Shown here piece by piece: positions 1-47,107 of a stretch of 64,000 nucleotides of DNA. The notes beneath the pieces were generated by a model, which had not been told where the DNA came from, made no database searches, and saw only the letters and a list, made by a program, of their open reading frames with translations. The position numbers were made by a program, and so were the translations under genes. Origin of the DNA: Candidatus Omnitrophota bacterium (GTDB taxonomy: Bacteria; Omnitrophota; Gorgyraeia; Duberdicusellales; 4484-171); the NCBI GenBank assembly GCA_016935525.1, contig JAFGQU010000004.1, positions 131,774 to 195,773 of the forward strand, written 5' to 3'. Positions within the stretch are counted from its first letter, which is position 1; each line of letters begins with the position of its first letter.

Positions 1-1154
1 GCGCCGTCCAGACGTACCCCTAATTCGGGATGATCACGCAGAAGGCTTTTTATCCGGTAGAGAGCGACCTTACCCGGATACCAGGGAGTATGCCAATAAG
101 TCCAGCCGTACGTATGAGGAAAATGGACCAAAACCGCATAGTACGCTTTAATCGCATGGCGGATCAATCCGCTGCGTTCGAGAATACTGGCAATATAAAA
201 TAATCTTACTCCCTCCGGTTCGGGAGCGATATTCCATTTATAAAAAGCCATACGCATATCCCGGCTATTAAGCACTTCCCAATGGTCCACTTTAAACAGC
301 TCTTTTTTAATCTTGGTGAATTCACTGTCAAATTTAAGTGAAGTAGAATTCGGATATATCCCTTCTCCCACCGCTTTACCTAAACCGATAGGGTCTTTCA
401 ATATATACTCGTATTCTTTGGTGCCTTTTCCGGTAAATTCGCCGTACTTCTTATAGTCAACCGGGAATTCGGCTCCTTCATCATACAGGGTGATAAATAC
501 GTCTTTCTGAAGAGGGTTTTCCTCTATCGGGCATCCGCCGCCTTCGACGATCTGCTGGATGACCTTTTGAGCCTTTTCTTTGACTGACCAGTACCATCCG
601 CGCGGATCAAACGCCTGAGCATAAGGATATTTTTCGACTACTTCTCTAAGTATCGAAACGGCCGCGTCGAATTTTTCCTGAACCGGCCCCTTTTCGGTCT
701 CATTTTTAAGGATCATCCCTTCGTTACGTAACGTTTCTCCTTTGATAAAATAACATACCGCGACATCATTCATCACTTTATACGTATCTTCTTCGCCTTT
801 AGGAGGTACTCCGGAAAGATTACCGGCAAGTTGATCGGCCTCCCCGGAAAACAAGGCGATACAGGCATCGGTCAATCCATACACTTTTTCCCACTGTCCC
901 TGGCCTTGAGCGGCCCAGGCTTTCCGCACATAATCGCTTGAATCCGGCATTTCTTTAGCTTCCGGTCCGGCCGTTCCTTCTTCCTGTACCACGCCGACAT
1001 CAGGGTTATCTTGAGCCCACCCCTGAGCACCAGTGCACCCGAGCATCAGCGCACCGATGATAAGTATTCCCCTCAATACGTGTAACGTGCTTGCCCCGTT
1101 GCGAAGCTCACGGGGTGACTTTGTGACTTTGTGACTTTGTGACTTGTTTCTCAT
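1..1154 (-). CDS. Lipoprotein of unknown function; its 3' end runs past the window edge. Last gene of the sugar ABC transporter operon
   Basis: Manual minus-strand translation from the ATG at 1154-1152 (ATGA overlap with the upstream permease stop) gives MRNKSQSHKVTKSPRELRNGASTLHVLRGILIIGALMLGC. That is a basic n-region, a hydrophobic core and an LGC lipobox. The frame stays open to position 1. Confidence 0.5.
   Translation of the reverse strand, partial: MRNKSQSHKVTKSPRELRNGASTLHVLRGILIIGALMLGCTGAQGWAQDNPDVGVVQEEGTAGPEAKEMPDSSDYVRKAWAAQGQGQWEKVYGLTDACIALFSGEADQLAGNLSGVPPKGEEDTYKVMNDVAVCYFIKGETLRNEGMILKNETEKGPVQEKFDAAVSILREVVEKYPYAQAFDPRGWYWSVKEKAQKVIQQIVEGGGCPIEENPLQKDVFITLYDEGAEFPVDYKKYGEFTGKGTKEYEYILKDPIGLGKAVGEGIYPNSTSLKFDSEFTKIKKELFKVDHWEVLNSRDMRMAFYKWNIAPEPEGVRLFYIASILERSGLIRHAIKAYYAVLVHFPHTYGWTYWHTPWYPGKVALYRIKSLLRDHPELGVRLDG
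1115..1146. repeat. Tandem 8-nt GTGACTTT array, a GTGAC-family repeat, inside the 5' end of the lipoprotein gene
   Basis: gtgactttgtgactttgtgactttgtgacttg. It encodes KSQSHKVTKS in the signal-peptide n-region. Confidence 0.8.
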
Positions 1155-1987
1155 CCTACGACTGCTCCGGCGGTAAGCCCTTTTACGAAATGTTTTTGCA
1201 TTTTTATATACAGCAGGATTATCGGCAAAGCGGCAACGGTCAATGCCGCCATAATGAGCGTGTGTTGAGTAACCATCTTATTGGCAAACTCCATCAACCC
1301 TACCTGAAGCGGCATAAAACTATAATCGGTAAACAGTAAAGACGCCAATACGAATTCATTCCATACGTTCAGGGCATTGAAAATAACGACCACCGCCAAT
1401 GCCGGAGCGACCAGGGGCAGCCCCACGTTCCACCAGATCTGAAGTTTATTGCAGCCATCGATACGGGCAGCATCTTCCAGGTCCCGGGGTAACTGGTCAA
1501 AAAACGTTTTTAAAAGATACATGCTCAACGACAGCCCCATATTACTCATCGCGAATACATATCCGGTACGGTTGACTAAATGGAATTTGTTAAGCAACAC
1601 ATATACCGGCACAAATCCGGCCGGAAGCGGGATCATCATCGCCGCCAGGAACATATAGAAAAGCACATTTTTGCCCCAGAAGTCCAGCCGGGAAAAGGCA
1701 TACGCTGAGAGTGACGATACAAACACGATAAGGATCACCGTGACAAACGTATAAAACACGCTGTTTAAAAAATAAAGCCAGAAGCCTTCCTCAAAAAATA
1801 CCACTTTATAATTATCTACATTAAACGCATGGGCCAGCCCCAAACCGTAATCGCTATCGAATTCGCTTTGCGTCTTGAACGATACGTTTACCATCCATAA
1901 AAAAGGCAATATACAGCTTAACGCGACACTCATCAAAAACGCATGCAGGATCACTAAAATGATTATCTTTTTAGCTCGGTAATACAC
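1151..1987 (-). CDS. Carbohydrate ABC transporter permease (MalG/UgpE-like)
   Basis: Multi-TM protein with an EAA-loop motif DAARIDGCNKLQIWWNVGLP. Confidence 0.85.
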   Translation of the reverse strand: MYYRAKKIIILVILHAFLMSVALSCILPFLWMVNVSFKTQSEFDSDYGLGLAHAFNVDNYKVVFFEEGFWLYFLNSVFYTFVTVILIVFVSSLSAYAFSRLDFWGKNVLFYMFLAAMMIPLPAGFVPVYVLLNKFHLVNRTGYVFAMSNMGLSLSMYLLKTFFDQLPRDLEDAARIDGCNKLQIWWNVGLPLVAPALAVVVIFNALNVWNEFVLASLLFTDYSFMPLQVGLMEFANKMVTQHTLIMAALTVAALPIILLYIKMQKHFVKGLTAGAVVG

Positions 1988-2870
1988 CGTATTTCTCCCT
2001 GATCTTTTTGGAAATAAAAAACATGGTAAACGACACCAAGATCAATACTATACCTAAGATGACCCCTTCGGCACAGGCAAGACCTACTAAAGAGAACCGC
2101 AAGTGATTATAAATACGCATCACCGGCACCTCAGTCAACCCGCCGGCTCCGCCGGTCAACGCCAAAATCATCGCAAACGCCTGCATCGTCCCCAGGATGG
2201 TCAACACGATCACCAGAGTGATCACCGGCATGACTAACGGAACGGTGATCTTAGTAAAACTATGCCAGGCGTTCGCTCCGTCGATACGGGCCGCTTCATA
2301 AAGCTGTTCGGGAATACTCTGAAGTCCCGCTAAAAGAATCACAAATGCCCAACCGAATCCTTTCCAGCAATGGACAAGCGCGGTGATCAATCGTACCCGG
2401 TCAGTCCCCAGCCAATCCTGAACGAGAAACCCCATTCCCAGACGGCCTAAGAACTGGTTGAACACATCCCGGCCGACCGGTTCGGAAATAAGCAGTTGTT
2501 TCATCAATAACCCGATGATGATCTCTGAAAGTACCGGCAGGATAAAAAAGACTACCCGATAAAATTTCTTCAAGCGCAGCACTTTATCTACCGCCAACGC
2601 CAACATAAAGGCAAAAATATTCTGAAAAGTAAGCGCCCAGAAAGTGATGAACGCGCCGTTATACATCGAAGGCCACCACTCTTTATCTCCGAACAATACT
2701 TCCCGGAAATTGGACAGCCCGACAAACTGCGGAGAAGAAATAAAATCATATTCCTGGAAACTTAAAATAAAGGTATAAAAGAAAGGGTAGATATAAAATA
2801 TCGAAAAGATAAGCAACGCCGGCCAGACAAAAGCGAAACTGGTCAGTTTATCGCGTAACTTTCCGTTCAT
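1971..2870 (-). CDS. Carbohydrate ABC transporter permease (MalF/UgpA-like)
   Basis: EAA motif EAARIDGANAWHSFTKITVP in a 6-TM protein. Its end overlaps the next permease. Confidence 0.85.
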   Translation of the reverse strand: MNGKLRDKLTSFAFVWPALLIFSIFYIYPFFYTFILSFQEYDFISSPQFVGLSNFREVLFGDKEWWPSMYNGAFITFWALTFQNIFAFMLALAVDKVLRLKKFYRVVFFILPVLSEIIIGLLMKQLLISEPVGRDVFNQFLGRLGMGFLVQDWLGTDRVRLITALVHCWKGFGWAFVILLAGLQSIPEQLYEAARIDGANAWHSFTKITVPLVMPVITLVIVLTILGTMQAFAMILALTGGAGGLTEVPVMRIYNHLRFSLVGLACAEGVILGIVLILVSFTMFFISKKIREKYGVLPS

Positions 2871-4204
2871 AATTGAGAAACTCTTTCTTTTACGGCTTGA
2901 ATCTCCTGAGCCACCCCCTGGGGAGTCTTAAGCCCCATGATGATCTGCTGCAGACCCCGGTTCATCACTTCAATGACCCGGGCATCTTCGTTTTTCGGCC
3001 ACACGTTGGGATGAGTCAATTTTTCCAGTTCGGGACGGGGGCTGCTACCGGGAAAATCTTCTACGCTCATCTTCAGATCGTTCCCTAACGTCTTCAGGAT
3101 CGAAGGGAACTTTTCCGGGTCCATTTTTACTGCCGGCAGATTGTTAGTCTTGAGGACCAGGAATTCCTGTTGAAGGTTTTGTGTGATCCATTCCAGGAAA
3201 CGCACTGCTTCTTCTTTCTGCGCTGACCGGGCATGGACCATAAATGAGGTGCCCGCGCCGCCCCATATCTTTTCGGGATATTTGTCCGAGACTTCCGGTA
3301 ACGAAAAAAACGCGTAATCCAACCGCGGATTCAACTGTCGATATACATTTACCGCCCAGCTCCCGTTAAAAGAAAAGACGGCTTTCCCTTTGGCGAACGC
3401 GTCTTCGGCTTCTTTATTCGTCATCTTTTCGATATTAGAAGCCAATACCCCTGATTCTTTCAATTTCATGAACAGGCTGAACACTTTTATCCATTGAGGG
3501 TCGGTATAGGAAACGGTCCCGGCGATAGTATTCAAAAATTTTTCTTCACCCATAAGGTTAATCGCCCATTCTGTCGCCAAAGCATTCAGCAACCACCCTT
3601 CGCCCCACCCGCAGACAAATCCGTCGATCCCCAGGTTTTCTTTCACCTGCTTAGCCACCGCAATGAACTCATCAAACGTCCGGGGGCCACGGTTAGGATC
3701 AAGTCCGACCTGTTGAAAAACAGACCGGTTATAGATGAACTGCATCACTGTAGTGTCGATAGGGACCGCATAGGTCCCGGGAGGCACTTTATAGAAATTA
3801 TCTTTTTTGAACTGGGTAACGGCTAACGTCTGAGGATAAAATGAATTTTGCCATTTGTGATTATCTTTCTCCATATAAGAGGTAAGATCGAGAATATGTC
3901 CGGCTTTTATGAACGAACCCAATATCTTTTTTTCACCGAGAATACCGAAGATATCGGGAAGATTGCCGGCACGGGCTGCGGCAATGACTTTTTGGGAATA
4001 GATATCGGCAGGGAAGAACAATTTGAATTCGACGGGGATACCGGTTTTTTCCTGGTATTGAACGGCCAGATCATTGAGAGCATCCTGACGATCGGTCAAC
4101 CAGTGCCAGACGACTAATCCCTGAGTGCGAGGGGCCTGGCTACACCCCCATAATAATAACGTACATAAAGAAAAAAGGAGAACCTTACTTTTCTGACTCA
4201 ACAC
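2867..4204 (-). CDS. Extracellular solute-binding lipoprotein of a sugar ABC transporter
   Basis: N-terminal signal with an LLLWGC lipobox. 445 aa, a size typical of family 1 SBPs. Co-operonic with two MalFG-type permeases. Confidence 0.8.
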   Translation of the reverse strand: MLSQKSKVLLFSLCTLLLWGCSQAPRTQGLVVWHWLTDRQDALNDLAVQYQEKTGIPVEFKLFFPADIYSQKVIAAARAGNLPDIFGILGEKKILGSFIKAGHILDLTSYMEKDNHKWQNSFYPQTLAVTQFKKDNFYKVPPGTYAVPIDTTVMQFIYNRSVFQQVGLDPNRGPRTFDEFIAVAKQVKENLGIDGFVCGWGEGWLLNALATEWAINLMGEEKFLNTIAGTVSYTDPQWIKVFSLFMKLKESGVLASNIEKMTNKEAEDAFAKGKAVFSFNGSWAVNVYRQLNPRLDYAFFSLPEVSDKYPEKIWGGAGTSFMVHARSAQKEEAVRFLEWITQNLQQEFLVLKTNNLPAVKMDPEKFPSILKTLGNDLKMSVEDFPGSSPRPELEKLTHPNVWPKNEDARVIEVMNRGLQQIIMGLKTPQGVAQEIQAVKERVSQL

Positions 4205-4495
4205 ACACCTCTCGTTTTTATTATAAATAAATCTAACTCAATAAAGGCCATTCCGTTAATGGACGCTCTATGTTACAAATCATTACGAGGGATACCGCTT
4301 TTAATAAAACGAAAAGTGGGTCAGATTCCCCTTGAGATATACAATTTATTATATGGAATTTCCTTTTTCTGTCAATTTCTCATTTTTAGCGAGCTTGCAC
4401 TCACCGATTACAGTGATAAAACAAATCATTTTGCTTCATTTACCAAAAACCCCTCATATTCTATTATTTCTATTCCTCTATTCAAATAAGAAGGG

Positions 4496-5698
4496 CTATT
4501 TTTTAAGAATAATACGCAGGAACCGGCGTTTGCCGATCTTTAACACTTTCCCTTCCGGAGGGATTGACAACGACTGCTCGGTGATCACCAGCGTACCGCT
4601 GGTAATACTCTTCTGTTCCAAGAGCCGCCGAGCTTCGCGTTTACTGGAGACTAAACCGCTCTGGGTAATGGCCTCTATGATATCGACGGGATCTGAATCG
4701 GCCCGGTATACCGGAATATCCTGAGGTAACTCTTTTTGAGAAAAGACTTTTTCAAAATTTTCCCGGGCTTTCCGAGCCGAAAGCGCTGAGTGATACGTCT
4801 CTACCAACGTAGATGCTAAAAAGAGTTTTGCCTCTTTAGGATGCATTTTTTTTACTTCATCAAGATCGATATCGGTAAGCAACCGGTAATAGTCATACAT
4901 AAGCTCATCGGAAATACTCATGACCTTGCCGAACATATCCTGAGGATGATCGGTAATTCCGATATAATTCCCCAGTGACTTGGACATTTTATTCTTCCCG
5001 TCAAGACCGACCAGTAACGGCATAGTGACCACGACCTGCGGCGGCAATCCGAATGATTCCTGAAGATGCCTTCCGACAATAAGATTGAATTTCTGGTCGG
5101 TTCCTCCAAATTCGATATCGGCGGCAAGTTTCACTGAATCGTATCCTTGGATCAACGGATACACAAGTTCCAAAAGCGAAAGCGGCTTGCCTTCTTTGAG
5201 CCTGAGGGAAAAATCATCGCGTTCGATCATCCGGGCTACGGTATACCGGCTTAACAGCGGAAAAAAATCATTCAAAGTGAATGCACGGTACCAGATACTA
5301 TTGAAGATCACTCTGGTCTTCTTTTTATCCAGGATCTTAAAGCACTGGGAAGTATAGGTCCTGGCGTGGGCGCGGATCTCGCGATCGCTCAGTGCCGGAC
5401 GCAATTCATTGCGGCCGGAAGGATCGCCGATACGGGCGGTGAAATCTCCGACGATGAAATATACGGTGTGGCCTAATTCCTGAAGTGCACGTAATTTACG
5501 TAATAGAACGGTATGGCCAAGATGGATATCTTTTGCGGTAGGGTCGAATCCGATCTTTATCTTAAGCCCCCCGCGAGTACGAGATACTTTTTGAAGCTTA
5601 TTGGTGAGTTCTTCCTGAGAAATACAGTCGATACTATTGGCTTTTATACATTCAAGAGTCTGTCTGATCTTGTTCATCGATTTTGGTAGAAAGACCAA
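4496..5698 (-). CDS. tyrS: Tyrosine--tRNA ligase
   Basis: HIGH motif (DIHLGHTV), KMSKS motif (KNKMSKSLGN) and a C-terminal S4-like domain. Confidence 0.85.
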   Translation of the reverse strand: MVFLPKSMNKIRQTLECIKANSIDCISQEELTNKLQKVSRTRGGLKIKIGFDPTAKDIHLGHTVLLRKLRALQELGHTVYFIVGDFTARIGDPSGRNELRPALSDREIRAHARTYTSQCFKILDKKKTRVIFNSIWYRAFTLNDFFPLLSRYTVARMIERDDFSLRLKEGKPLSLLELVYPLIQGYDSVKLAADIEFGGTDQKFNLIVGRHLQESFGLPPQVVVTMPLLVGLDGKNKMSKSLGNYIGITDHPQDMFGKVMSISDELMYDYYRLLTDIDLDEVKKMHPKEAKLFLASTLVETYHSALSARKARENFEKVFSQKELPQDIPVYRADSDPVDIIEAITQSGLVSSKREARRLLEQKSITSGTLVITEQSLSIPPEGKVLKIGKRRFLRIILKK

Positions 5699-7217: not shown

Positions 7218-7395
7218 CTTTAATCTCCTCCTTTGTAATGAGCAGCCCTTTGATATCTTTGATATGAAAGGTCAGTCACCGAAGACTTTCTGCGGAGAGA
7301 GCCCTTTTTTCCCGTAAGGGAACAAAGCTCTATCCTCCCGATGATATCGAGATCATTTTAAATGTTTACAATTATCTCTTAATTCAATTTTTTTG

Positions 7396-9370: not shown

Positions 9371-9437
9371 ATCTTCTTTCTCTGGTTAAAACAAAATTTT
9401 ACCATTTAATCCGATATTCTCAAGGATTTTAATCGAT

Positions 9438-10004: not shown

Positions 10005-10146
10005 AAGTCTACGATTTATCCGACGGACGACCGCTCCTTCTCAGTCGCTCGGACGAAGGACGACTTTCTTTGCGTCTCTCGTCCGAATGAGTCCGGTGAT
10101 GCCGGACGAATGATCGTCCGAGCCCCGATGGAATCGGGGCGATCGT

Positions 10147-12502: not shown

Positions 12503-13400
12503 ACAATTCCTTTAAGATATGAGTAATAAAAGTATCAATGGTTTCCCGGTCGGTTACCGATACCGGTAGCCACTTTTTGACTCTAAAATCTCTCTTTATT
12601 GTATCAATTTTAGAGAACAAGTAAAAAAATTTTTTCTTGAGGTATTCCGGATCGAATCGGGCAAGTTTCTCTTCGATAATACGCCGCTGGGACTGCATAT
12701 CTTCTTTATTATCGCTTACCACAACAATTATCTTACTACGGGAGAGATGTTTTAAGAATACTTCTTCCCGCAGATCATCATGAGCGGTGACCGGCGGCGT
12801 ATCGAGCACGGTAAACCGTTTGAATTTATATTCGCATACCGCCCACCGGCAATGCGATGTAGTAAACGGGTATGCCGCGACTTTATAATTCTGCCCGCTG
12901 AGCGCGTTGACCAAGGAAGTCTTTCCGGTATTGGCAAATCCGACAAAAGCGACATCATTGGGAATACGATAATCCAGGATGACTTCCTTTTCCTCGCCAG
13001 GAGAACCGCATTGGGCCTGACCGTGCTGGCAACTACCTTCTCCGCCGGGGGCGCCGTGTAAGATGAAAAACCGTTCGTCTTCTTTTAAAAGGTCGGCAAG
13101 AAGATCTTCCTGATGATCCCGGATGATCGTCCCGCAGGGGACATGCAGTAACAGAGTCTCGCCGTCTCTTCCGTGTTTACGTTGAGGACCGCCATCGCCG
13201 CCGCCGGACGCTTTATATCTTTTACTTTTACGGAACTTACTTAAATCATACAGGTTACTGTCGACGACAAACACGACATCACCGCCACGGCCTCCGTCAC
13301 CGCCGTCCGGAGTGCGGGTATGCCCGTGACGAAAAAAAGAAGCCGCTCCGTCACCGCCTTTACCGGCTCGAACAAAAACAGAGACACGATCGATAATCAC
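12486..13400 (-). CDS. obg: Obg-family GTPase, divergent
   Basis: Gly-rich Obg fold N-domain (GGDGGRGGDVVF), G1 loop GFANTGKTS and a YPFTT switch. The G3 (DTPP) and G4 (SKID) motifs are atypical. Sits immediately downstream of rplU. Confidence 0.75.
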   Translation of the reverse strand: MIIDRVSVFVRAGKGGDGAASFFRHGHTRTPDGGDGGRGGDVVFVVDSNLYDLSKFRKSKRYKASGGGDGGPQRKHGRDGETLLLHVPCGTIIRDHQEDLLADLLKEDERFFILHGAPGGEGSCQHGQAQCGSPGEEKEVILDYRIPNDVAFVGFANTGKTSLVNALSGQNYKVAAYPFTTSHCRWAVCEYKFKRFTVLDTPPVTAHDDLREEVFLKHLSRSKIIVVVSDNKEDMQSQRRIIEEKLARFDPEYLKKKFFYLFSKIDTIKRDFRVKKWLPVSVTDRETIDTFITHILKELYEDKN

Positions 13401-24082: not shown

Positions 24083-24178
24083 GTCACAAGTCACATGGTC
24101 ACATAGTCACACGTCAAAAAACAATGAGATCATTTCTCCATCCCCTGCGTGTGTCGTGTATCATGTGACGTGTGACCT
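24083..24178. repeat. REP-like intergenic palindrome built from inverted GTCACAN/NTGTGAC heptamer arrays
   Basis: gtcacaagtcacatggtcacatagtcacacgtca ... AT-rich core ... gcgtgtgtcgtgtatcatgtgacgtgtgacc. Confidence 0.8.
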
Positions 24179-31939: not shown

Positions 31940-32022
31940 GTCACACGACACATAGTCACATAGACACACGTAAAAAAATATGGATCTTATACGTGTGACG
32001 TGTGACGTGTGACTTTGTGACC
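31940..32022. repeat. REP-like GTGAC-heptamer palindromic element
   Basis: ggtcacacgacacatagtcacatagacacacg - taaaaaaatatggatcttat - acgtgtgacgtgtgacgtgtgactttgtgacc. Lies between the aldolase stop and the ALDH start. Confidence 0.8.
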
Positions 32023-32023: not shown

Positions 32024-33046
32024 TCATTCTACCGGCGCTTCTTCCCATAATTTGAAGGTGCGTACCATCACCGGGTACCACCGGCTCATCTTCGCAAAAT
32101 CACCTTTGGTCTTCACCTTCCCCTGAGTCGATGCGACAAAAGGATCGATCTCTTTATTGAACACTTTTTTAAGGACTTCCGGTTTACCGATGATCACAAA
32201 TTCCGCATCATCACAGTCGTCATCACGGACTATCCGGCCCTGTTCATAACAGAACCGCATGACTTCATCCGTATCCTGATTTTTTACCGCAAGCGTACAG
32301 GTCAATCCGTATTGTTTCCCTAAAGCTTGAGCTTGTTCGTCATTATTGACCAGTTCAGTAAGCCGCCCGCGGTGCGCCGCCGATAACATCTTATAGGTCT
32401 TCGACACACGCTGAGCATGTAATATCGGCTGTGTTTCCTGAACATGCAATCCGGCGGAAACCGCCTGGCTTTTAGTAATCAGATTTACTTTTGTCTGTTC
32501 TTCAATCAATTCCAAAAGGCTCACCGCTTCTTTGAATTCTTTCCCTATCGCCACGACCCCATGATACCGCAGTACCGTAATATTATTAGCCTCAAGCGCC
32601 GCCACGACCGGTTGTATATCGGTGACCGTAGGCGTATTCTGGGGTATGACCCGGACATTACCCAGATAGAATTTCGCTTCAAACGAAAATATATCCAGCG
32701 TATCGAAATAATGAAAAAACGCGGTCGTACACGGAGAATGGCTGTGGACTACGGTCTGGATATCGGGAAGCGACCGATACACCGCGAGGTGCAGATCTTT
32801 TTCACTGGACGGGGCCGATTCATTTCCCGCGATGAGATTGCCGTCGATATCGACACTCACGATATCGTCATAAGTCAAATGCCCCAAATAACAATCATGC
32901 CGGGTGATAAGGATGTGATTGGGGCCGATACGGCACGACAGGTTGCCGCTGCGGGCAGTGATCAACCCTTTTTGATAAAGGATATTCGCCCAATAAATGA
33001 TCTCTTTTTTTTCTCGTTCACACTTCACTGCCAGGCACCTCCTCAC
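32024..33046 (-). CDS. Class II aldolase/adducin-family protein fused to a C-terminal SCP2-like domain
   Basis: N-terminal half with GNLSCRIGPNHILIT...HSHSP, as in MtnB/FucA-type aldolases. C-terminus ...QGKVKTKGDFAKMSRW resembles the SCP2 sterol-carrier signature. Confidence 0.65.
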   Translation of the reverse strand: MRRCLAVKCEREKKEIIYWANILYQKGLITARSGNLSCRIGPNHILITRHDCYLGHLTYDDIVSVDIDGNLIAGNESAPSSEKDLHLAVYRSLPDIQTVVHSHSPCTTAFFHYFDTLDIFSFEAKFYLGNVRVIPQNTPTVTDIQPVVAALEANNITVLRYHGVVAIGKEFKEAVSLLELIEEQTKVNLITKSQAVSAGLHVQETQPILHAQRVSKTYKMLSAAHRGRLTELVNNDEQAQALGKQYGLTCTLAVKNQDTDEVMRFCYEQGRIVRDDDCDDAEFVIIGKPEVLKKVFNKEIDPFVASTQGKVKTKGDFAKMSRWYPVMVRTFKLWEEAPVE

Positions 33047-33500
33047 CGATTGTTTCGCGTTCAGAATGTATTATATACTTCTTTGACCGTTCATCTACAA
33101 CAAAATTATGTCCCGCCAGGGTCGAAGCATCCCGGTCAAAACCGGAAAGATCGTATTCCCCTTCAGCAAGGATACATACCGGCACCCGGTGGATTTCACT
33201 TAACAGCGCCGCGTATGAAGCCCCGGTCATCCCTTCCGGCCGCAAGGAACCTTTACGGCAGAAAAGAAACGTCTTTTTTATCTTTTTCGTATAGAAAAGA
33301 ATACCGATCATATTGTCGGTACAATATACCGCCGGGATGTAGTGTGAGGAAAGAAGCGGTAGATTATGGTGGATCCCGACACAATACGGCCGCTGTTCCG
33401 GGACGATCACCAGAGCGTCTTCATCCTTTAAGCAGGCAATATGTTCGTGTGAGATGATTCCCCATACCAACACCGCATTTTTAATCGTTTCAAGTTTCAT
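33018..33500 (-). CDS. Hypothetical protein
   Basis: 160-aa ORF in operon position, overlapping its neighbours. No recognised motif. Confidence 0.3.
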   Translation of the reverse strand: MKLETIKNAVLVWGIISHEHIACLKDEDALVIVPEQRPYCVGIHHNLPLLSSHYIPAVYCTDNMIGILFYTKKIKKTFLFCRKGSLRPEGMTGASYAALLSEIHRVPVCILAEGEYDLSGFDRDASTLAGHNFVVDERSKKYIIHSERETIGEEVPGSEV

Positions 33501-34402
33501 TGTTTCATCGGTAATTCTAAAGATTTTGTGATCAATCGGCCGGGCACCACATCAAATGCTGGATATACCGCGTCCTGGCCGTTACTCCACTTCTCAATAT
33601 AAGAAAACACCTCGCGCGGCGGCCGTTCTTCGATCTCGATACTGTTCACATCGATATCGCGGGGATATTGAGTAAGCGCGTAAAACGGGATATTGAAATG
33701 ACGGGCAAGGCACCCGAGGGCATACGTCCCGGTTTTATTGATAATATCTCCGGTCTTCGTCGCCCGGTCGGCACCGACCACGACACAATTCACTTTTTGT
33801 TTTTTCATAAGTAAAGCCGCCTGATTATCGCAGAGGAGATAACAAGACAGGTTGTTTTTCCGTAACTCCCAAAAGGTGATCCGGCTGCCCTGCAGGTAAG
33901 GCCGGGTTTCACATACGTAATAAGAAACGTGTTTACCCGAAGATTCCAATGCTTCAGCAAGATATAACAATTCTCCGTTGACGTTACATATCGTAAGGAT
34001 ATGCGCCTCTTGCGGCAGGAGTCCGGCAAGAGTAGTTGCCCTTAATTTACGGGCCCGGTCGAAATTCGTGATGAATCCGGAAACGATCTTATCCAGCGGC
34101 GCGCCGGATGCGCGGTAACGTTTTATTAATCCGTTTAAAAACAAAAAATCGAATGTAGGACGGGTCTTTTGGAATTTCCCGGCGATCTCATCGCTCGCAC
34201 ACGAATTTTCAAAAAGCACGCAACAATAGAAAAATAAAAGCACCTGGCCTAATGAACGGGTCTTCATCTGGCCTAACACACCCAAGGCGTCATCAAGAGT
34301 TTTTACCGTGATATACTCACACGTATAAGGGATCTTAGTCTCATCCAGGACTTGTATAGTATTTTCCGTTAAGCTGACCGGAAAAAGCAAAGGGCTATCC
34401 AT
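33497..34402 (-). CDS. eIF-2B-family sugar-phosphate isomerase (MtnA / ribose-1,5-bisphosphate isomerase-like)
   Basis: GADRATKTGDIINKTGTYALG and a C-terminal PAFDVVPGRLIT, characteristic of MtnA-type isomerases. Confidence 0.7.
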   Translation of the reverse strand: MDSPLLFPVSLTENTIQVLDETKIPYTCEYITVKTLDDALGVLGQMKTRSLGQVLLFFYCCVLFENSCASDEIAGKFQKTRPTFDFLFLNGLIKRYRASGAPLDKIVSGFITNFDRARKLRATTLAGLLPQEAHILTICNVNGELLYLAEALESSGKHVSYYVCETRPYLQGSRITFWELRKNNLSCYLLCDNQAALLMKKQKVNCVVVGADRATKTGDIINKTGTYALGCLARHFNIPFYALTQYPRDIDVNSIEIEERPPREVFSYIEKWSNGQDAVYPAFDVVPGRLITKSLELPMKQ

Positions 34403-36115: not shown

Positions 36116-36117
36116 TA

Positions 36118-36191
36118 GTCACACGACACACGTCACACGTCACACGTGAAACCGAATACGTGTGACTATGTGACCTTGTGACTTTGTGACC
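36118..36191. repeat. REP-like GTGAC-heptamer palindromic element
   Basis: gtcacacgacacacgtcacacgtcacacgtg-aaaccgaata-cgtgtgactatgtgaccttgtgactttgtgac. It fills the gap between the B12-rSAM stop and the amidohydrolase start. Confidence 0.8.
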
Positions 36192-36192
36192 C

Positions 36193-37653: not shown

Positions 37654-37676
37654 ATCTTTCTCCTTTCTTTTTATAA

Positions 37677-37764
37677 GTCACACATCACATTATATAGAGG
37701 CGGAACCACGCGGATATTTATCTTTCCCTTACGTGTGACCTTGTGACTATGTGACTTTGTGACC
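37677..37764. repeat. REP-like GTGAC-heptamer palindromic element
   Basis: gtcacacatcacat - AT-rich core with tataga - acgtgtgaccttgtgactatgtgactttgtgacc. Lies between the SDR stop and the B12-rSAM start. Confidence 0.75.
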
Positions 37765-37765
37765 T

Positions 37766-38539
37766 TCATTTATTTGGATGTTCCTGTGTAAACGGAATCA
37801 CCGGTTTGGTCCAGGGAGTCTGTTGATTGATTACGGCAAGTTCCAGAGGATTCACGTTTGCTTCCTGGGTAAGCGCGAACATGACCGTATCGGCAACCGA
37901 TTCCACCGAACACAATCTATCGTTATCTGACGTCACTTCATTGAGTTTTCCGGTAAGCGGGGTCTTGGTCACTCCCGGAAAGATGGAAGTCACCTTAATC
38001 CCGAAATCACGCATTTCCCAGAAAAGGCCTTTGGCAAACGCGCGTAACGCTACTTTCAGCGAGGTATATACAATGAAATTGCGCGGCGGCGGATCGACCA
38101 TCACCGAACCGCTGGTGATATTCACGATATGGCCGGATTCCTGTTCTTTCATCTGGTTGACTACCAGCCGGGAAAGCATCACGTAACTATAATAATTGGT
38201 ATACATCACTTTTTCAATATCCTCAATGGGTTGTTGCCAGAACGGATACTGACTGGAAACACCCGCACCATTGATCAATACGTCTATCTTTTTAAACCGA
38301 GTGAGCGCAGTCTCAACCAGATTTTCAAGATCCTCGCGCTTGGTCACATCGCAACGGACACAGATCACTTTGTCTTTATTGGGTAAAGAGGCTTTCAACT
38401 CATCCAATACTTCAATCCTGCGGGCGGCAAGGACTAACGTCGCGTTACTTCGGGCTAATTTCTCAACGATGGCCTTTCCGATCCCGCCGGATGCACCGGT
38501 CACAATACATACCTTATTTTCTAACTGCACATGGTTCAT
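37766..38539 (-). CDS. Short-chain dehydrogenase/reductase, candidate ketoreductase
   Basis: TGASGGIGKAI Rossmann motif. YxxxK region present. 257 aa. Confidence 0.8.
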   Translation of the reverse strand: MNHVQLENKVCIVTGASGGIGKAIVEKLARSNATLVLAARRIEVLDELKASLPNKDKVICVRCDVTKREDLENLVETALTRFKKIDVLINGAGVSSQYPFWQQPIEDIEKVMYTNYYSYVMLSRLVVNQMKEQESGHIVNITSGSVMVDPPPRNFIVYTSLKVALRAFAKGLFWEMRDFGIKVTSIFPGVTKTPLTGKLNEVTSDNDRLCSVESVADTVMFALTQEANVNPLELAVINQQTPWTKPVIPFTQEHPNK

Positions 38540-38565
38540 ATGTCTTCCTCCGATCTTTTCTGTCG

Positions 38566-40120: not shown

Positions 40121-40137
40121 TTTTCCTCCTTCTTTTT

Positions 40138-40237
40138 CGTAACGCGTAACGCGGCACGCGACACGCGCATAAAGAAAAATATTAAAATCGATTTCCTCTC
40201 CCCAAGACGCGTTACGCAGGACGCATGACGCGTTACG
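40138..40237. repeat. Variant palindromic element built from ACGCGTTAC/GTAACGCG heptamers
   Basis: cgtaacgcgtaacgcggcacgcgacacgcgc - ataaagaaaaatattaaaatcgatttcc - gacgcgttacgcaggacgcatgacgcgttacg. Same architecture as the GTGAC family, with a different unit. Confidence 0.75.
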
Positions 40238-41039
40238 GGAGCATCGCGACCACTCTCGCCCAGGCCGCGCCGGTTTGCCGGATACGTACCGGCAGACAAC
40301 TGACGGTAAACCCGTGATCAGGCAATGCCCCTAAATTAGCCAGCCGTTCGATATGGATAAACTCCCGAGTGCGCCCGTAAAAATGAGCCGGCCATAAATA
40401 GCGGGCTTCTCTTTTTTCTAAAAAGTCTTTCATCATGTATTTATAAGGACGGTCTATCCCCATGGTATCCACACCGAATATTTTTATCTGGTGATCAAGG
40501 AGATAATCGATCGCCGAATTGTCCAGCCCCGGATAATCGGAAAAATAACGGGGAGTGCCGTATAACGTATCCGAACCGGTATAGATAAGTACGATATCCA
40601 ACGGTTTTAAAGTATACCCTATCTTTTCAAGCGCTCGCCGGATATCTTCGGCGCCGATCGTCTCAAAAGGCTGCTTATAACAAAGGTCGAGGCGTACTCC
40701 GTTCTGCACGCACCATTCTAAGGGTATTTCTTCGGCGGTTTTCGACGGACGGCCTTCGGATCGGCTTCCGTAATGGAACGAATAATCAAGATGAGTCCCT
40801 ACGTGCACCGGGGAATGGACTATTTCCAAAGAAAGAAACTCTTCGTCGGGAAGATCGTCTTTAGTGATCATCCGCCGGCCGAACAGATAGGCGAGCTTCC
40901 CCTTGAGGGTCCTGGACATCAATACTTTATTTAGTTTTTTTATACCGTCACGGTGAGAAATCCGTTCGATATCGACATCATGGACTTCAAAAGCTTTTTC
41001 ATCAATGGGAAGGCTCAGGTCTATTATTCTCATGGTCAC
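40233..41039 (-). CDS. Putative-cyclase-family protein (kynurenine formamidase fold)
   Basis: HSPVHVGTHLDYSFHY metal-binding motif of the cyclase family. The probable true start is the ATG at 41033. The 3' end overlaps the ACGCGTTAC repeat. Confidence 0.65.
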   Translation of the reverse strand: MTMRIIDLSLPIDEKAFEVHDVDIERISHRDGIKKLNKVLMSRTLKGKLAYLFGRRMITKDDLPDEEFLSLEIVHSPVHVGTHLDYSFHYGSRSEGRPSKTAEEIPLEWCVQNGVRLDLCYKQPFETIGAEDIRRALEKIGYTLKPLDIVLIYTGSDTLYGTPRYFSDYPGLDNSAIDYLLDHQIKIFGVDTMGIDRPYKYMMKDFLEKREARYLWPAHFYGRTREFIHIERLANLGALPDHGFTVSCLPVRIRQTGAAWARVVAMLP

Positions 41040-41070
41040 AAAGTCACATAGTCACACGTCACATGTGACG
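41034..41070. repeat. Short GTGAC-family palindromic element
   Basis: ggtcacaaagtcacatagtcacacgtcacatgtgacg. Lies between the ACP stop and the cyclase start. Confidence 0.75.
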
Positions 41071-41081
41071 ATTTTAAATAA

Positions 41082-41318
41082 TTACGACTGTTTTTTATTT
41101 TCAATAATCCCCACGATCTCCAGCGGAGTCGAGCTTTTTCCTATCTCGTCCGTTTCTATCTTTACCGCGAACTGTTTACCCAGCGCGACCGTCAATTCGA
41201 CCATTTCAGTTGAATCTACTCCGATAGAATCATAGAGCGTTTTATCTTCAATAAGTTCATCCTCACCCACATCCAATGTCTTGGCAATAGCCGAGATCAC
41301 TTCTTCTTTAAGTCCCAT
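41082..41318 (-). CDS. Acyl carrier protein
   Basis: IGVDSTEMVEL phosphopantetheine-attachment motif. Strong RBS AAAGGAGGG before the MGLKEE start. Confidence 0.75.
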   Translation of the reverse strand: MGLKEEVISAIAKTLDVGEDELIEDKTLYDSIGVDSTEMVELTVALGKQFAVKIETDEIGKSSTPLEIVGIIENKKQS

Positions 41319-41425
41319 GGTCCCTCCTTTTTGAAACACAGATAGTCACGGATTAAGATCCACAAGATGGTCACAGACGCAAAAATCTGCGATCATCAGT
41401 TCAAAATCAGCGATTATCTGCGCAA

Positions 41426-43932: not shown

Positions 43933-44531
43933 TCTATTCTCCTTACCTTAAATTTCATATGCCCTCCGTCAGGACAGGCCGTACCGGTCTTACAGTGTTC
44001 GTTTTCTTCAAAAGTGAACTTCGCGCCGAAATTCAACGCAAACAGGACCGGAAACAGGACGCTGTAAGCCGCGCCACAAAACTCCGGAGGTGTTTTTAAC
44101 CCTTTTACCTGCCATTTGTCGCCCGGCTTGTAACCGAACGTACAATGTCCGCACGTCTCCTGCACCTCGATTTCCAGCTGTTTAGGATTGGGGCCTTTCG
44201 GTTTTTCAGCCCTGGGTTCGACAATTACATTACCGGCATCATCTAATATTTCGACTTTAAACGTAAGTTTGGCGTTATCGGGACAGGTCACATTGATCGA
44301 TCTGGTATTCTCCATGAACGGGAATTTCGCGCCGAAGGTAAGCGCGTAGAGACAGGGAAACGCCGATTGCGACAATCCCAGGCAGAAATCTTCGGGCGGA
44401 TGCGTAAAATCTTTCAAGATGAGCTCATCCCCTATCTTATAATTATGATAACAATACCCTCTTATCTCAAGAACAGTCAACTTCAGCTTGGGAAACGTTA
44501 CTTTTTGAGAGACTTCTTTTTTTTCATCCAT
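43929..44531 (-). CDS. Hypothetical protein made of two tandem roughly 95-aa Cys-rich domains
   Basis: Internal duplication. Both halves share C-x-H...K-x-GD...PE-x-FC...P-x-L-x-AL-x-FGAKF-x-F-x-EN...CPD...FKV. Confidence 0.5.
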   Translation of the reverse strand: MDEKKEVSQKVTFPKLKLTVLEIRGYCYHNYKIGDELILKDFTHPPEDFCLGLSQSAFPCLYALTFGAKFPFMENTRSINVTCPDNAKLTFKVEILDDAGNVIVEPRAEKPKGPNPKQLEIEVQETCGHCTFGYKPGDKWQVKGLKTPPEFCGAAYSVLFPVLFALNFGAKFTFEENEHCKTGTACPDGGHMKFKVRRIE

Positions 44532-45537
44532 ACGATTTCTCCTCTACCTTCGTCAATTCTTTCATGAATTCCTCAACAGATAAAAATGTATTTGTTTTTT
44601 CGACCCGGTGGACGAGTTCTACCATCTTTTTATTCAACGGCGCCTGGCTCATCGATTTTTCAGCCAAACCGACTATCTCTCCGTTAATATAATCTATTTC
44701 TGAAGGTTTTCCCCTCCGAATACTCTGTAATATAGATCCATAAAGCGGTTCTTCGCTTAAAGAAGCCATCACTTTCGAAAAAAGCACTGCCGCCTCTTTA
44801 GGAGGCATAGTGACTAACCCCTGGATACGTTCTTTAGGATATCCCGGAAGGCTGACCAGTTCGATGCCGGCATCTTCTATGACCGAATATGCCTCCCGGT
44901 TTACATAAATCGCGCATTCCGCAATTTCAAGATTACTGAACGCATCCTGCAGGGAAACTCCCAACACCGCCGGTATACAATTATTAAGGTTCACGAATAT
45001 TTTAAGATACTTCGCGCCCCGGATGTTTTTCTCATTCACCACGCGGGTAACCGGGCTAAGAATGCGTTCTATCTGGTCGAACTGCCAGCGGGGATTTTTA
45101 AAAAGGGACCCCACCACAAGGCTTCCTTCGAAATTGTGTACTACGCGGTCCGGCGGATAAAATGTCGCGCCGAACATCACGATCCCGGTGATGATCCGGG
45201 AAGCATGAGAATAATTCTCTACAATATAATCGGCGGCAATCCCGTTTTGAGTCGTGAGGATGAACGAATCTTTAAGATACGGCCCATTTTCTTTAAGAAC
45301 CGCCTCAAGATCGGCGATCTTGGTGGCAATTACCGCTACATCGACCGGCTCAGTCAACACGGTCTGCACATTGACTTTGACATTATGGGTCCCGCGTACG
45401 CCTTCGATCTTCAACCCTTCACGGGTCAACGGTTCTTTTTGATACTCCTTGACGATACCTATTACTTCACTGCGGCCGGAAAGATATCCTAAAAAAGCCC
45501 CGCCGATCGCTCCACATCCAAGTATCGCTACTCTCAT
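44524..45537 (-). CDS. 2-dehydropantoate 2-reductase-family (ApbA/PanE) oxidoreductase
   Basis: N-terminal MRVAILGCGAIGGAF Rossmann motif. KPR-like C-terminal domain. Confidence 0.7.
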   Translation of the reverse strand: MRVAILGCGAIGGAFLGYLSGRSEVIGIVKEYQKEPLTREGLKIEGVRGTHNVKVNVQTVLTEPVDVAVIATKIADLEAVLKENGPYLKDSFILTTQNGIAADYIVENYSHASRIITGIVMFGATFYPPDRVVHNFEGSLVVGSLFKNPRWQFDQIERILSPVTRVVNEKNIRGAKYLKIFVNLNNCIPAVLGVSLQDAFSNLEIAECAIYVNREAYSVIEDAGIELVSLPGYPKERIQGLVTMPPKEAAVLFSKVMASLSEEPLYGSILQSIRRGKPSEIDYINGEIVGLAEKSMSQAPLNKKMVELVHRVEKTNTFLSVEEFMKELTKVEEKSYG

Positions 45538-45986
45538 TGCCCCGCCTCACAATATTTTCTGAATGCCCCAAGCACTCGCTCAATATTCATACAATGCAGA
45601 CGTTTATATACCATGTTCCAAAGCATACGGGAACATCTCCCTTTCAATTCGCAACAAAAACGGTAGACGACTTCTATCTGGGCCCGGTCCTGGTGGACAA
45701 AAAATTCTTCATACCCGCCTTTAAACATCCCGTCAAGAAACGTACGGCGTAGATATTTTTTCTCTCGGTCGACGACTTCATTACGTTTATGCCATGCGGG
45801 CCCTAACGGGAACCGCGCCTTTTGCCAATACAGCGTGCCTTCTTTGATGTCACCGGAAAGGTTAATAAACCTCATCATCATTTTTTCAGGCCACCACTCT
45901 GACTGTGGACCCAGAAGCAATTCTTCAAAGACATCGATCCCGTTTCTTTGCAGTGAAAAAACGATATTTTGTTTAATCGTCTCCAT
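45534..45986 (-). CDS. Hypothetical protein
   Basis: 150-aa ORF, translationally coupled within the cluster. No confident motif. Confidence 0.35.
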   Translation of the reverse strand: METIKQNIVFSLQRNGIDVFEELLLGPQSEWWPEKMMMRFINLSGDIKEGTLYWQKARFPLGPAWHKRNEVVDREKKYLRRTFLDGMFKGGYEEFFVHQDRAQIEVVYRFCCELKGRCSRMLWNMVYKRLHCMNIERVLGAFRKYCEAGQ

Positions 45987-46245
45987 CTTCTATATATTGT
46001 TTGTAGGGAACCTCCAGCTGCTGAAACAGACGGCGCATCATGTCACGAAATGCCGGGGGCACCTCACAGAAAAAGGCTTTAATAAGATCTTCTTCCTCTA
46101 CGGTGCGGGAATCCCGCGCGCCGGCGATCGCTTCGGCAGATTCTTTCACCAGGTGTTCGGCGATCGAACGGTGAAATTGAGGAAGATTCCCGATCACTTT
46201 ATCAAAGATATCCTGGGCATTTTTAGCCCATGCAACTGATGCCAT
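45973..46245 (-). CDS. Hypothetical small protein
   Basis: 90-aa ORF in operon position. Confidence 0.3.
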   Translation of the reverse strand: MASVAWAKNAQDIFDKVIGNLPQFHRSIAEHLVKESAEAIAGARDSRTVEEEDLIKAFFCEVPPAFRDMMRRLFQQLEVPYKQYIEDGDD

Positions 46246-46246
46246 G

Positions 46247-46984
46247 TCATACTCCTTTCTCGATCAGACTGAACGCCCCGTTAATCATCTTCATCTCGGC
46301 TTCAAAATAACGATAATCGGTAAACCCCATCTGTCCGGTAATAAGGTTATCGGAAACCGCAAGGACCACCGCGACTTTCTTTTTATAGATATTCGCCAAG
46401 GTCACGAAAGGGCTGGTAACCATATCAACGGCGATAGCGCCTTTATCGATATAAGAATTTACTATATCTTTCGTTTCGCGAAATATCGCATCGGTTGTCC
46501 ATACCCCGCCGCGATGGGTACCGCTGATCTCCTTAAATGTATCGACCAACGACGAAGTCAACTGTCCATCTACCAGAGGCATATATTCATCGTCCACGTA
46601 ATACCGGGTAACCCCGTCACCCCTGATCACTTTATCGGCAACAATAAAATCACCGATCTCGATATCATCGCGCAGGGCTCCGCAGGAACCGATACGGATA
46701 AGCGTCTCTACTCCGGCGGCACAGACCAATTCGGTAATAAACGCCGAATCGGGAGCGTAAAACCCTCCGTTGCCGACGGTGACCCGTTTCCCTTTATACG
46801 TACCGGTCCAGAAAGTGTAGCCCAGAAAAGTAAAATTTTTTACGGGATCTTCAAGTTTATCGACACACATTTTAGCCCGTTGCGGTTGTCCGCTGATGAT
46901 CGCAGTGTGAGCAAAATCGCCGGGACGAAACTGCAAAGAGTCTAACAGGCCTTTCGGTTCCATATGGATCTCTCTGGTCATCAT
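46247..46984 (-). CDS. PNP/UDP-family nucleoside phosphorylase or nucleosidase
   Basis: PNP_UDP_1 fold pattern (GNGGFYAPDSAF, IRIGSCGAL, a VDMVTSP-like region). Confidence 0.7.
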   Translation of the reverse strand: MMTREIHMEPKGLLDSLQFRPGDFAHTAIISGQPQRAKMCVDKLEDPVKNFTFLGYTFWTGTYKGKRVTVGNGGFYAPDSAFITELVCAAGVETLIRIGSCGALRDDIEIGDFIVADKVIRGDGVTRYYVDDEYMPLVDGQLTSSLVDTFKEISGTHRGGVWTTDAIFRETKDIVNSYIDKGAIAVDMVTSPFVTLANIYKKKVAVVLAVSDNLITGQMGFTDYRYFEAEMKMINGAFSLIEKGV

Positions 46985-47002
46985 AATGATACTCCTTTAA
47001 TT

Positions 47003-47107
47003 AGTCACAAGGTCACATAGTCACAGGTCACACGCAATAGTTACTTTGAGGTATTTTCTTGACGTGTGTCGTGTGACGTGTGTCGTGTGACGTGTGTCGT
47101 GTGACGT
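47003..47107. repeat. REP-like GTGAC element with a 14-nt GTGTGACGTGTGTC x3 right arm
   Basis: tagtcacaaggtcacatagtcacaggtcacacgc - aatagttactttgaggtattttctt - gacgtgtgtcgtgtgacgtgtgtcgtgtgacgtgtgtcgtgtgacgttg. The right arm lies inside the ligase 3' coding end. Confidence 0.8.

Follow-up and report, generated by a model that had tools for sequence, protein, structure and literature searches.

The window analysed here, a 64-kb stretch of the genome of a Candidatus Omnitrophota bacterium (64,000 nt of contig JAFGQU010000004.1), carries arrays of tandem 7- or 8-nt GTGAC/GTCAC units at seven gene junctions, most of them in inverted pairs. We regard these loci as probably being gene-less derivatives of a family of small gene cassettes, resembling MITEs (miniature inverted-repeat transposable elements), dispersed among gene junctions and turning over rapidly. 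Full-length members of the family bear a four-helix-bundle (4HB) gene of the TIGR02436/PF05635 type (Avd-like, 'S23p') between their arms, and would thereby share the anatomy of the intervening sequences (IVSs) found in rRNA. Our literature searches turned up no earlier account of this association between genes and arrays; the arrays themselves are a variant of a known but unexplained class of repeat.

Tandem arrays at gene junctions

The seven loci, first proposed in a first-pass annotation of the sequence, are real and non-random: there are 16 matches to GTGACNNNGTGAC in the window against 0.03 expected from shuffled sequence, and seven to GTGACNNGTGAC against 0.02. Clusters of at least three GTGAC/GTCAC motifs comprise these loci and two loose groups (13296-13354 and 37932-37993) that are not tandem arrays, and tandem GTGAC/GTCAC arrays are confined to the seven within the window. 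A scatter of GTCAC motifs that had also been reported at 41340-41380 amounts to two isolated copies with no array.

Both arms are present at five loci, and the other two are one-armed or asymmetric. Along the coding strand, a full locus passes from the upstream stop codon through (GTCACAnn)x3-6, a core of about 9-39 nt and (nnTGTGAC)x3-4 to the Shine-Dalgarno sequence or start of the next gene. A direct array, core and inverted array had been ascribed to all seven; this holds for the five paired loci, but 1115-1146 is a single array and 41035-41070 has no core, and the core length originally given (4-35 nt) is superseded by our measurement. Units are a mixture of 7-mers (GTCACAC, GACACAC) and 8-mers (GTCACAAA and its forms in -AAG and -ATA), the elements are 36-105 nt long, and the arms begin (A/G)GTCAC; the G+C content of the window is 46%. 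Nearly all genes in the window lie on the minus strand, as does every gene adjoining an array, and all seven loci are junctions of such co-directional genes:

1115-1146, one-armed array: GTGACTTT x4 on the plus strand, that is, GTCACAAA x4 on the coding minus strand (Tandem Repeats Finder, TRF: period 8, 3.9 copies, 100% matches); begins 5 nt past the stop of an ABC-permease gene (1151); next to it in the coding direction comes a GC hairpin (1093-1114), unrelated to the array.
24083-24177, paired element: arm 24083-24116 (GTCACAA GTCACATG GTCACATA GTCACACGTCA), core 24117-24147, second arm 24148-24177 (CGTGTGTC GTGTATC ATGTGAC GTGTGACC); separates an RlmN-like radical SAM gene from the radical SAM gene that follows; one arm is read through by the upstream open reading frame (ORF; stop 24130).
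31940-32022, paired element: arm 31940-31971, core 31972-31990, arm 31991-32022 (ACGTGTGAC GTGTGAC GTGTGAC TTTGTGACC); between the stop of an aldolase-SCP2 gene (32024) and the start of an aldehyde dehydrogenase gene (about 31930).
36118-36191, paired element: 7-mer arm 36118-36148 (GTCACAC GACACAC GTCACAC GTCACAC GTG), core 36149-36157, 8-mer arm 36158-36191 (ACGTGTGAC TATGTGAC CTTGTGAC TTTGTGACC); between the stop of a B12-radical SAM gene (36193) and the start of an amidohydrolase gene (about 36103).
37677-37764, paired element: decayed arm of two units 37677-37691 (GTCACAC ATCACATT), 39-nt core, intact 8-mer arm 37731-37764; between the stop of an SDR gene (37766) and the start of the B12-radical SAM gene (37653).
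41035-41070, asymmetric element: plus strand GTCACAAA GTCACATA GTCACAC GTCACAT GTGACG, four units and one inverted unit without a core; fills the gap between ACP and cyclase genes, running right up to the start codon of the cyclase gene, which lacks a Shine-Dalgarno sequence.
47004-47107, paired element: 8-mer arm 47004-47035, core 47036-47059, 7-mer arm 47060-47107 (TGACGTGTGTCGTG x3.4, GTCACAC and GACACAC in alternation); between an AMP-ligase gene and a PNP/MTA-phosphorylase-like gene, the AMP-ligase ORF (stop 47041) extending through the 7-mer arm.

The arrays had been described as sitting exactly in the gaps between co-directional genes. Their position at junctions bears this out, but strictly intergenic placement fails for two arms, which overlap the 3' ends of ORFs: those for the AMP-ligase and the RlmN-like protein continue through their 5' arms (47041-47107 and 24130-24177) and end in repeat-encoded tails, ...RHTTHVTRHTSHDTRQENTSK and ...GHTSHDTRHTQGMEK, a gain of about 13-20 residues over the orthologues. 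Close to the one-armed locus there is also an octamer-like array at 1025-1056 (plus strand GAGCACCA GTGCACCC GAGCATCA GCGCACCG), a near-match to the GAGCACCT GTGCACCT... arm of the relative L122; on the minus strand it falls inside the start of a lipoprotein gene and encodes the signal peptide ...IIGALMLGCTGAQ. This array and the four GTCACAAA units at 1115-1146 may together represent a chimeric element, its 3' arm having become part of a coding region.

The earlier prediction that each locus would, when transcribed, fold into a long imperfect hairpin is upheld at the paired loci by folding calculations, in which minimum free energy structures are long bulged stems. Four of them reach -32.7 to -41.7 kcal/mol (24083-24177, -41.7, z -5.0; 31940-32022, -37.5, z -5.4; 36118-36191, -38.5, z -6.6; 47004-47107, -32.7, z -3.3), and 37677-37764, with its decayed arm, -28.1 (z -3.2), so that z ranges from -3.2 to -6.6 across the five. 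The remaining two loci give no significant fold (1115-1146, z -1.3; 41035-41070, weak, z -1.9). A scan of 30-48 kb for sigma-70 promoters and intrinsic terminators found no enrichment at the arrays; one weak promoter-like match touches an array, and no T runs follow the arrays in that interval. Searching the whole window against Rfam at gathering thresholds matched no family. A CRISPR-like array was considered and set aside, the units being 7-8 nt long and without spacers.

That the arrays are artefacts of collapsed or chimeric reads can be dismissed almost entirely. A 1.6-kb short-read Logan contig of this organism, L001, does break inside arrays, as such an artefact might lead one to expect, but this independent assembly contains 37677-37764 in identical form, an orthologous array is present in a second metagenome-assembled genome (MAG), L002, and unrelated assemblies contain analogous loci in their hundreds.

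Orthologous gaps in relatives

We compared orthologous gaps in five relatives, L002, L121, L122, L003 and L004, expressing their relatedness as identity of the B12-radical SAM protein, and found that arrays vary in presence, units and core. In L002 (94%), the gap between the SDR and radical SAM genes (3111-3205, orthologous to 37677-37764) retains the four-unit 8-mer arm, alongside a core that cannot be aligned with that of the window and a second arm that is different and fuller. Elsewhere, L002 has CGTCGTG...CGCAATA arrays where the window has GTCACA arrays, and the same element occurs again, in opposite orientation, in its cyclase-SRPBCC gap. Long-range pairing in trans between L002 599-734 and 4683-4766 was considered, but these are more simply read as two copies of one such A...B element in opposite orientations. 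In L122 (84%), the SDR-radical SAM and cyclase-SRPBCC gaps both show the design of four units, a loop and four inverted units, here in GAGCACCA and TGGTGCTC, and the loop in the SDR-radical SAM gap is AT-rich.

There are no tandem arrays in the compared gaps of L121 (88%), where the radical SAM-amidohydrolase gap is occupied by an ordinary terminator-like hairpin. L003 and L004 (82-83%) have the same gene order with compact gaps of 0-35 nt and no GTGAC arrays; at the radical SAM-amidohydrolase junction of L004 (11465-11499) there is a one-armed GTAAATGA x4.4 array of unrelated unit, overlapping the start of the next gene. L004 is a low-GC Omnitrophota relative (Susulua-like, 32% G+C). In more distant relatives, the gene cluster in which most of the window arrays lie is conserved and the arrays are absent.

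Unit sequences that relatives have in the same gaps (GAGCACCA, CGTCGTG, CGCAATA, CGCGTTA) are unrelated to the GTCACA units, and the window itself contains two arrays of other unit families:

40138-40236, the same architecture in other heptamers: on the coding strand CGCGTCA TGCGTCC TGCGTAA CGCGTCT, a core, then CGCGTGT CGCGTGC CGCGTTA CGCGTTA; in the cyclase-SRPBCC gap.
54457-54499, GAACGGGn octamers: CCCGTTC agaa GAACGGGT AAACGGAC AAACGGGC GAACGGGC, one unit and four inverted; upstream of a plus-strand UvrD-type helicase gene (54526).

The first was outside the original list and belongs to the same class, with a weakly significant fold (z -1.8); the orthologous gap holds CGTATTG/CACGACG arrays in L002 and GAGCACCA arrays in L122. 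The second repeats the one-plus-four layout seen at 41035. Since orthologous gaps differ in the presence, units and core of their arrays, conserved operators are excluded, while selfish or neutral insertions fit. An early suggestion that the elements may be recombinogenic is supported, the arrays evidently evolving rapidly between relatives.

Similar arrays occur in frame within the linker joining the Aldolase_II and SCP2 domains of a fused protein, orthologous to about position 32492 of the window: L002 8399-8426 (GTCGCAAG GTCACAC GTCGCAG GTCACAG, translated ...SQGHTSQVTG...) and L122 15109-15141 (GAGCACCA x4, translated ...STRAPEHQSTS...). The linker has no array in the window, L003 or L004. 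The SDR-radical SAM junction, which has arrays in the window, L002 and L122, is invaded in L123, where a nucleotidyltransferase/HEPN pair and a peptidase C11 gene (6586-9927) stand between the two genes.

Four-helix-bundle gene cassettes

A 419-nt insertion separates the two KAS genes in the orthologous cluster of L122; between a GAGCACCA x4 arm and an inverted arm it holds a 118-aa ORF of the TIGR02436/PF05635 family (E = 1e-34). This cassette (4459-4900) lies exactly at the KAS-KAS junction with ATGA at both boundaries, and at its right end the downstream KAS gene acquires a new Shine-Dalgarno sequence and start. Several elements in the window and in L002 likewise begin 0-2 nt after ATGA; judged from these sequences, the motif could possibly be a target preference or a duplication.

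When loci fetched solely by the TGTGAC pattern were searched with the 4HB protein (tblastn), four were found to have a 4HB gene bracketed by GTCACA/TGTGAC arrays: L007, L031, L076 and L085, the last from Bacteroidota. L031 has both an intact cassette and a decayed copy with the same arm, leader and gene start. Full-length cassettes measure 420-480 nt and hold one small 4HB gene between inverted arms.

A metagenome scan with an alignment of the 4HB protein provided 80 further loci (L124-L203), being those most similar to the Omnitrophota query. A strong tandem signal of period 7 or 8 is present in 100 of 153 flanks of the 4HB gene, compared with two of 113 segments lying 500 nt away and four of 153 shuffled flanks; the period is 7 in 32 flanks and 8 in 66. 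By TRF, 131 of 158 flanks contain arrays, most often of four copies, and 53 of 78 loci have them on both sides of the gene. In 38 loci, as against five, the upstream unit recurs downstream as its reverse complement. Unit families around the gene are diverse (GAGCACCA, GTCACAAG, GTCACCAC, GAGCACAA, GACACAAG, GGAAGCTn, CGCAATA) and include the alternating GTCACAC/GACACAC of window arm 47060-47107. Gene and arms are inherited together: identity between 4HB proteins correlates with similarity between their arms (Mantel r = 0.49, a value reached in none of 500 permutations).

Gene-less hairpins of the cassette's own unit family occur in other gaps of the same contigs, and one of them, L125 1026-1070, resembles a cassette in which the leader runs into the stop codon and 3' arm. 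The arms in the window are 90-100% identical to cassette arms over 16-48 nt, and one match continues into the leader and outer boundary. Individually, arm 1115-1146 is 94-96% identical to arms of cassettes L144 and L153; 31940-32022 has a 41-nt, 90% match to the 5' arm and leader of L134; and cassette L173 matches both an arm of 36118-36191 (97% over 29 nt) and 47004-47107 (48 nt, 92%).

These observations bear on whether the arrays have instead grown in place as simple sequence repeats (SSRs), through replication slippage, for which heptamers are the favoured unit, and hairpin-templated copying, with no mobility and with 4HB genes lodging in AT-rich hairpin gaps. According to Mrazek (2007), as relayed in PMC4679880, many bacteria have no long SSRs more abundant than those of the heptamer class; loci differ in unit number and spacing with 7- and 8-mers mixed, and the same gaps in close relatives hold different unit families, as turnover in situ would produce. 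Yet the same units, spacer vocabulary, modal number of four, and outer and inner boundaries recur across loci of one genome and across phyla, the decayed copy in L031 reproduces arm, leader and gene start, gene and arms co-vary, and slippage alone leaves unexplained why inverted partners occur 10-400 nt away. We consider growth in place unlikely on this evidence.

A viral origin for the cassettes was also considered and rejected, just four related 4HB loci occurring in 2.9 million viral contigs, two of them with flanking arrays. In L204 and L205 (IMG/VR, about 1001-1342), a 4HB homologue is without flanking arrays, and both flanks read like continuous coding DNA.

Distribution across genomes

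When one genome was taken for each species and searched for three TGTGAC units, at least 116 loci emerged, about a quarter of them in Omnitrophota or in PVC MAGs mislabelled as Planctomycetes. Among the matches listed, the GTCAC-first design extends to Alistipes, Verrucomicrobia and Acidobacteria, an Anaerolineales locus has the mirror-image, GTGAC-first arrangement, and some genomes contain five or six arrays per 8 kb. Across the window, L002 and Omnitrophota loci, 31 of 48 arms have four units, with periods of 7 or 8. In the Omnitrophota sample all 12 strictly paired arms are GTCAC-first, and the ORF mask covers 35% of array bases compared with 91% of all bases.

Relationship to known repeats

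The closest precedent is the GGGAATC heptamer of Xanthomonas, a member of the long heptameric SSR class (Mrazek 2007). X. campestris and X. axonopodis have about 185 such arrays, mostly of four units; around three-quarters pair up in convergent, inverted orientation, and intergenic sites account for about 90%, chiefly where co-directional ORFs adjoin and towards the 3' end of the upstream one. They are dispersed, and related species do not share them at the same genes (Rehm et al. 2015, PMC4692102). The window arrays agree in having tandem 7-8-nt units with a mode of four, inverted pairing at five of seven loci, an intergenic position between co-directional genes and no conservation between relatives. 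They differ in their GTCACAnn units, their mixture of 7- and 8-mers, the absence of G runs and hence of any G-quadruplex, and their Omnitrophota host. The Xanthomonas work does not draw a link to 4HB gene cassettes, but one of its arrays abuts a 4HB gene, XCC0516: a four-unit GGGAATC array overlaps the start of this gene in the published repeat table (PMC4692102), and its product (PDB 2GSC) is a four-helix-bundle protein that matches the 4HB profile at E = 5e-27.

IVSs of 23S rRNA provide the second comparison. Those with an S23p (PF05635) ORF, as in Coxiella and Leptospira, encode a four-helix bundle of about 120 aa and are sporadically distributed, and that of Coxiella burnetii is a 428-nt selfish element in which a 28-bp terminal stem, cut by RNase III, surrounds the S23p ORF (PMC4990558). 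Full-length cassettes in L122, L031 and L007 and the metagenome loci share this arm-4HB-arm anatomy of about 430 nt, and the paired loci in the window likewise form long terminal-inverted-repeat stems. Unlike IVSs, the window loci have short cores without the PF05635/TIGR02436 ORF that is present in L122, L031, L007, L076 and L124-L203; they lie between protein-coding genes and not in a helix of 23S rRNA, in keeping with the lack of Rfam matches in the window; and their arms are tandem 7-8-nt units. RNase III cleavage, known for IVSs, would apply to these arms by analogy.

Resemblance to REP/BIME (repetitive extragenic palindromic) elements, proposed from the outset, is right in spirit. In the loose sense the arrays are dispersed hairpin palindromes at gene junctions and form inverted doublets, and like REPIN-RAYT systems (PMC3116915, PMC2817692, PMC3733652) the family combines a gene flanked by its own repeats with many gene-less copies of genome-specific sequence. 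Strict membership is rejected. REP sequences are recognised by a GTAG or CGTC tetranucleotide heading a palindrome of 20-40 nt (PMC3733652), but the window loci have no such head, their arms are tandem arrays, no transposase domain, RAYT or Y1 type included, was found among the 57 window ORFs, and the gene that is flanked in relatives encodes a 4HB protein rather than a Y1 (RAYT) transposase. A single-copy RAYT may lie elsewhere in the genome. As regards MITEs, inverted arms are present here and the boundary ATGA is suggestive, while the gene-bearing relatives encode no recognised transposase.

Two other heptamer systems are less similar. The STRR heptamers of cyanobacteria and TAACTGA repeats of Beggiatoaceae and Bacteroidetes are intergenic, often just upstream of starts, strain-specific with 7-nt indels, absent from the same gaps in close relatives, and liable to break assemblies (PMC4679880). 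Both differ from the window arrays in being nearly always direct, with 169 direct sets against one inverted in BOGUAY; a role as translational regulator has been proposed for them, and no associated gene is known (PMC4679880). At the hmw locus of Haemophilus influenzae, an (ATCTTTC)n array in the 5' untranslated region supplies one arm of a long RNA hairpin that is subject to processing by RNase III, and transcription and folding drive changes in repeat number (PMC12721329). Unlike the arrays described here, this is a single phase-variable locus and not a dispersed family, and its other arm is a G-rich non-repeat (PMC12721329). Our searches of the literature, which covered TGTGAC repeats, tandem repeats in Omnitrophota and PF05635/TIGR02436 together with repeats, found no paper in the library searched that links the protein family with tandem-repeat arms.

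Gene cluster and the question of regulation

Six of the seven loci fall within a gene cluster at 23172-48603 (23-49 kb) that is conserved across Omnitrophota, its B12-radical SAM protein being 76-100% identical in more than 120 protein clusters and matching an NCBI Omnitrophica entry at 100%. Its genes encode an AMP-ligase, an MTA-phosphorylase-like protein (PNP_UDP), two KAS, an ACP, two cyclase/SRPBCC proteins, an MFS transporter, an SDR, the B12-radical SAM protein, an amidohydrolase, an aminotransferase IV, MtnA-like (IF-2B) and MtnB-like (class II aldolase) proteins, an aldehyde dehydrogenase, and MMPL, LolA-like and DUF1302 proteins; in other words, a KAS/ACP/cyclase/SDR set is joined with methylthioadenosine-salvage-like enzymes and an MMPL/LolA-like/DUF1302 export set. 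The IF-2B/MtnA-like function at 33018-34402 is split over two ORFs (301 and 160 aa), as it is in L002, L121 and L122, and is a single gene of 314-318 aa in L003 and L004. Outside the cluster, the window contains housekeeping genes. The perceived concentration of arrays in the biosynthetic cluster survives as a weak effect: they occur at six of 26 junctions inside it and one of 31 outside (Fisher p = 0.03).

This concentration, the resemblance of TGTGA/TCACA to CRP half-sites, and a PadR gene (48700-49242) just upstream of the cluster could be taken to mean that the arrays are operators for a co-regulator of the cluster, either CRP/FNR-like, as initially suggested, or the PadR protein itself. 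We regard this explanation as largely refuted and now very improbable. A period of 7-8 nt sets successive units on different faces of the helix, and a CRP/FNR operator fails as a candidate in that the fixed dyad TGTGA-N6-TCACA is replaced by tandem units in the order TCACA...TGTGA, spaced by anything from 0 to about 40 nt, with no excess of promoter-like sites in the cores. Close relatives have unrelated units in the same gaps despite a conserved cluster, PadR context and gene order, and the same arrays adjoin unrelated genes in many genomes and phyla. Moreover, a separate region free of GTGAC units lies ahead of the cluster: the interval from the PadR gene to the AMP-ligase gene (48604-48699) contains a TTGACT hexamer, a TATAAT-like box and a dyad, AGTAAAAT-N12-ATTTTACT, and from its sequence is a more plausible candidate for the cluster's promoter and operator than the arrays.

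A model for the elements

In proposing how the elements arise, we need to account for arms of about four tandem 7- or 8-nt units, inverted so as to make a long imperfect palindrome, that occur both with and without a gene. Our contention is that the window copies would derive from 4HB cassettes by loss of the ORF. Riding within operon transcripts, they would form stems of about 25-35 bp interrupted by regular bulges, and, by analogy with the stems of 23S IVSs and the Haemophilus hmw hairpin, these stems may be cut by RNase III or act as protectors of 3' ends. For the host they would mostly be tolerated junk, albeit junk that can uncouple neighbouring cistrons, extend ORFs and supply new start contexts.

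Several points weigh against this model. There is no 4HB gene (tblastn), transposase or RAYT in the 64-kb window, so the link to the cassettes rests on arm similarity and on relatives. Arms are single or non-complementary at 1115-1146 and L002 4683-4766, where a stem is impossible, and two loci have a translated 5' arm, which would interfere with folding. Target-site duplication is not convincing at any boundary, the ATGA at several left and right boundaries being only suggestive. Association with the gene is strong but not exclusive, arrays being present in 11 of 28 other intergenic gaps of the 4HB-bearing contigs, and the 80 metagenome loci are the nearest to the Omnitrophota query and not the whole protein family. 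Processing by RNase III is plausible entirely by analogy. Lastly, descent may run in either direction, with cassettes losing their gene or genes entering the loops of pre-existing hairpins.

A rival reading is a function selected by the host. The units might be sites for a multimeric RNA- or single-stranded DNA-binding protein (a pentameric 4HB protein, or one of S1, Csp or CsrA type), and the hairpin a post-transcriptional or mRNA-stabilising device. REP hairpins stabilise upstream mRNA in E. coli. Arrays placed directly after stop codons and directly before Shine-Dalgarno sequences or start codons would suit such a function, as would the modal four units (range 3-6), close to the five chains of both solved 4HB entries, and similar proposals have been made for TAACTGA repeats (PMC4679880). 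Against this, presence, unit sequence and core are not conserved at orthologous junctions even at 94% protein identity, relatives do without arrays, arms are sometimes single, chimeric or translated, and this segment of the genome has no known 4HB gene. Selected binding sites thus seem to us an improbable explanation, and gene-less derivatives of cassettes the better one.

Binding could nevertheless be a property of the cassettes themselves. Both solved structures of the 4HB family hold five chains and the modal number of units is four, which leads us to the hypothesis that the putative function of the 4HB protein is to bind its own repeats. More speculatively, and at long odds, array-flanked 4HB genes would be an unrecognised, phylum-spanning selfish element, in which an Avd-like pentamer recognises its own arm units, one per subunit, on RNA or single-stranded DNA, and by doing so helps the cassette and its gene-less derivatives to be copied or retained. 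The logic of this parallels RAYT-REPIN.

Implications

This analysis ties together two puzzles that had stood apart. Heptamer-class tandem repeats have since 2007 ranked as the commonest long simple repeats in many bacteria, and inverted pairs were catalogued in Xanthomonas, with no established origin or function in either case. The 4HB 'S23p' proteins that rRNA intervening sequences encode are likewise very common, and their role is unexplained. The adjacency of gene and array is found in Omnitrophota, in at least one Bacteroidota MAG, in some viral contigs and at XCC0516 of Xanthomonas, and on both sides of the gene in all but XCC0516, with hairpins that lack the gene but share its unit family occupying other junctions. 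In practical terms, these elements break short-read assemblies, extend ORFs with repeat tails and can pass for regulatory sites in biosynthetic clusters. Binding of the protein to its repeats, cleavage of the stems by RNase III, and presence/absence polymorphism of whole elements can now be tested. If it were true, self-recognition by the 4HB protein would unite the intervening sequences of 23S rRNA, orphan 'S23p' proteins, and the excess of intergenic heptamer repeats in Xanthomonas, cyanobacteria, Bacteroidota and Omnitrophota.

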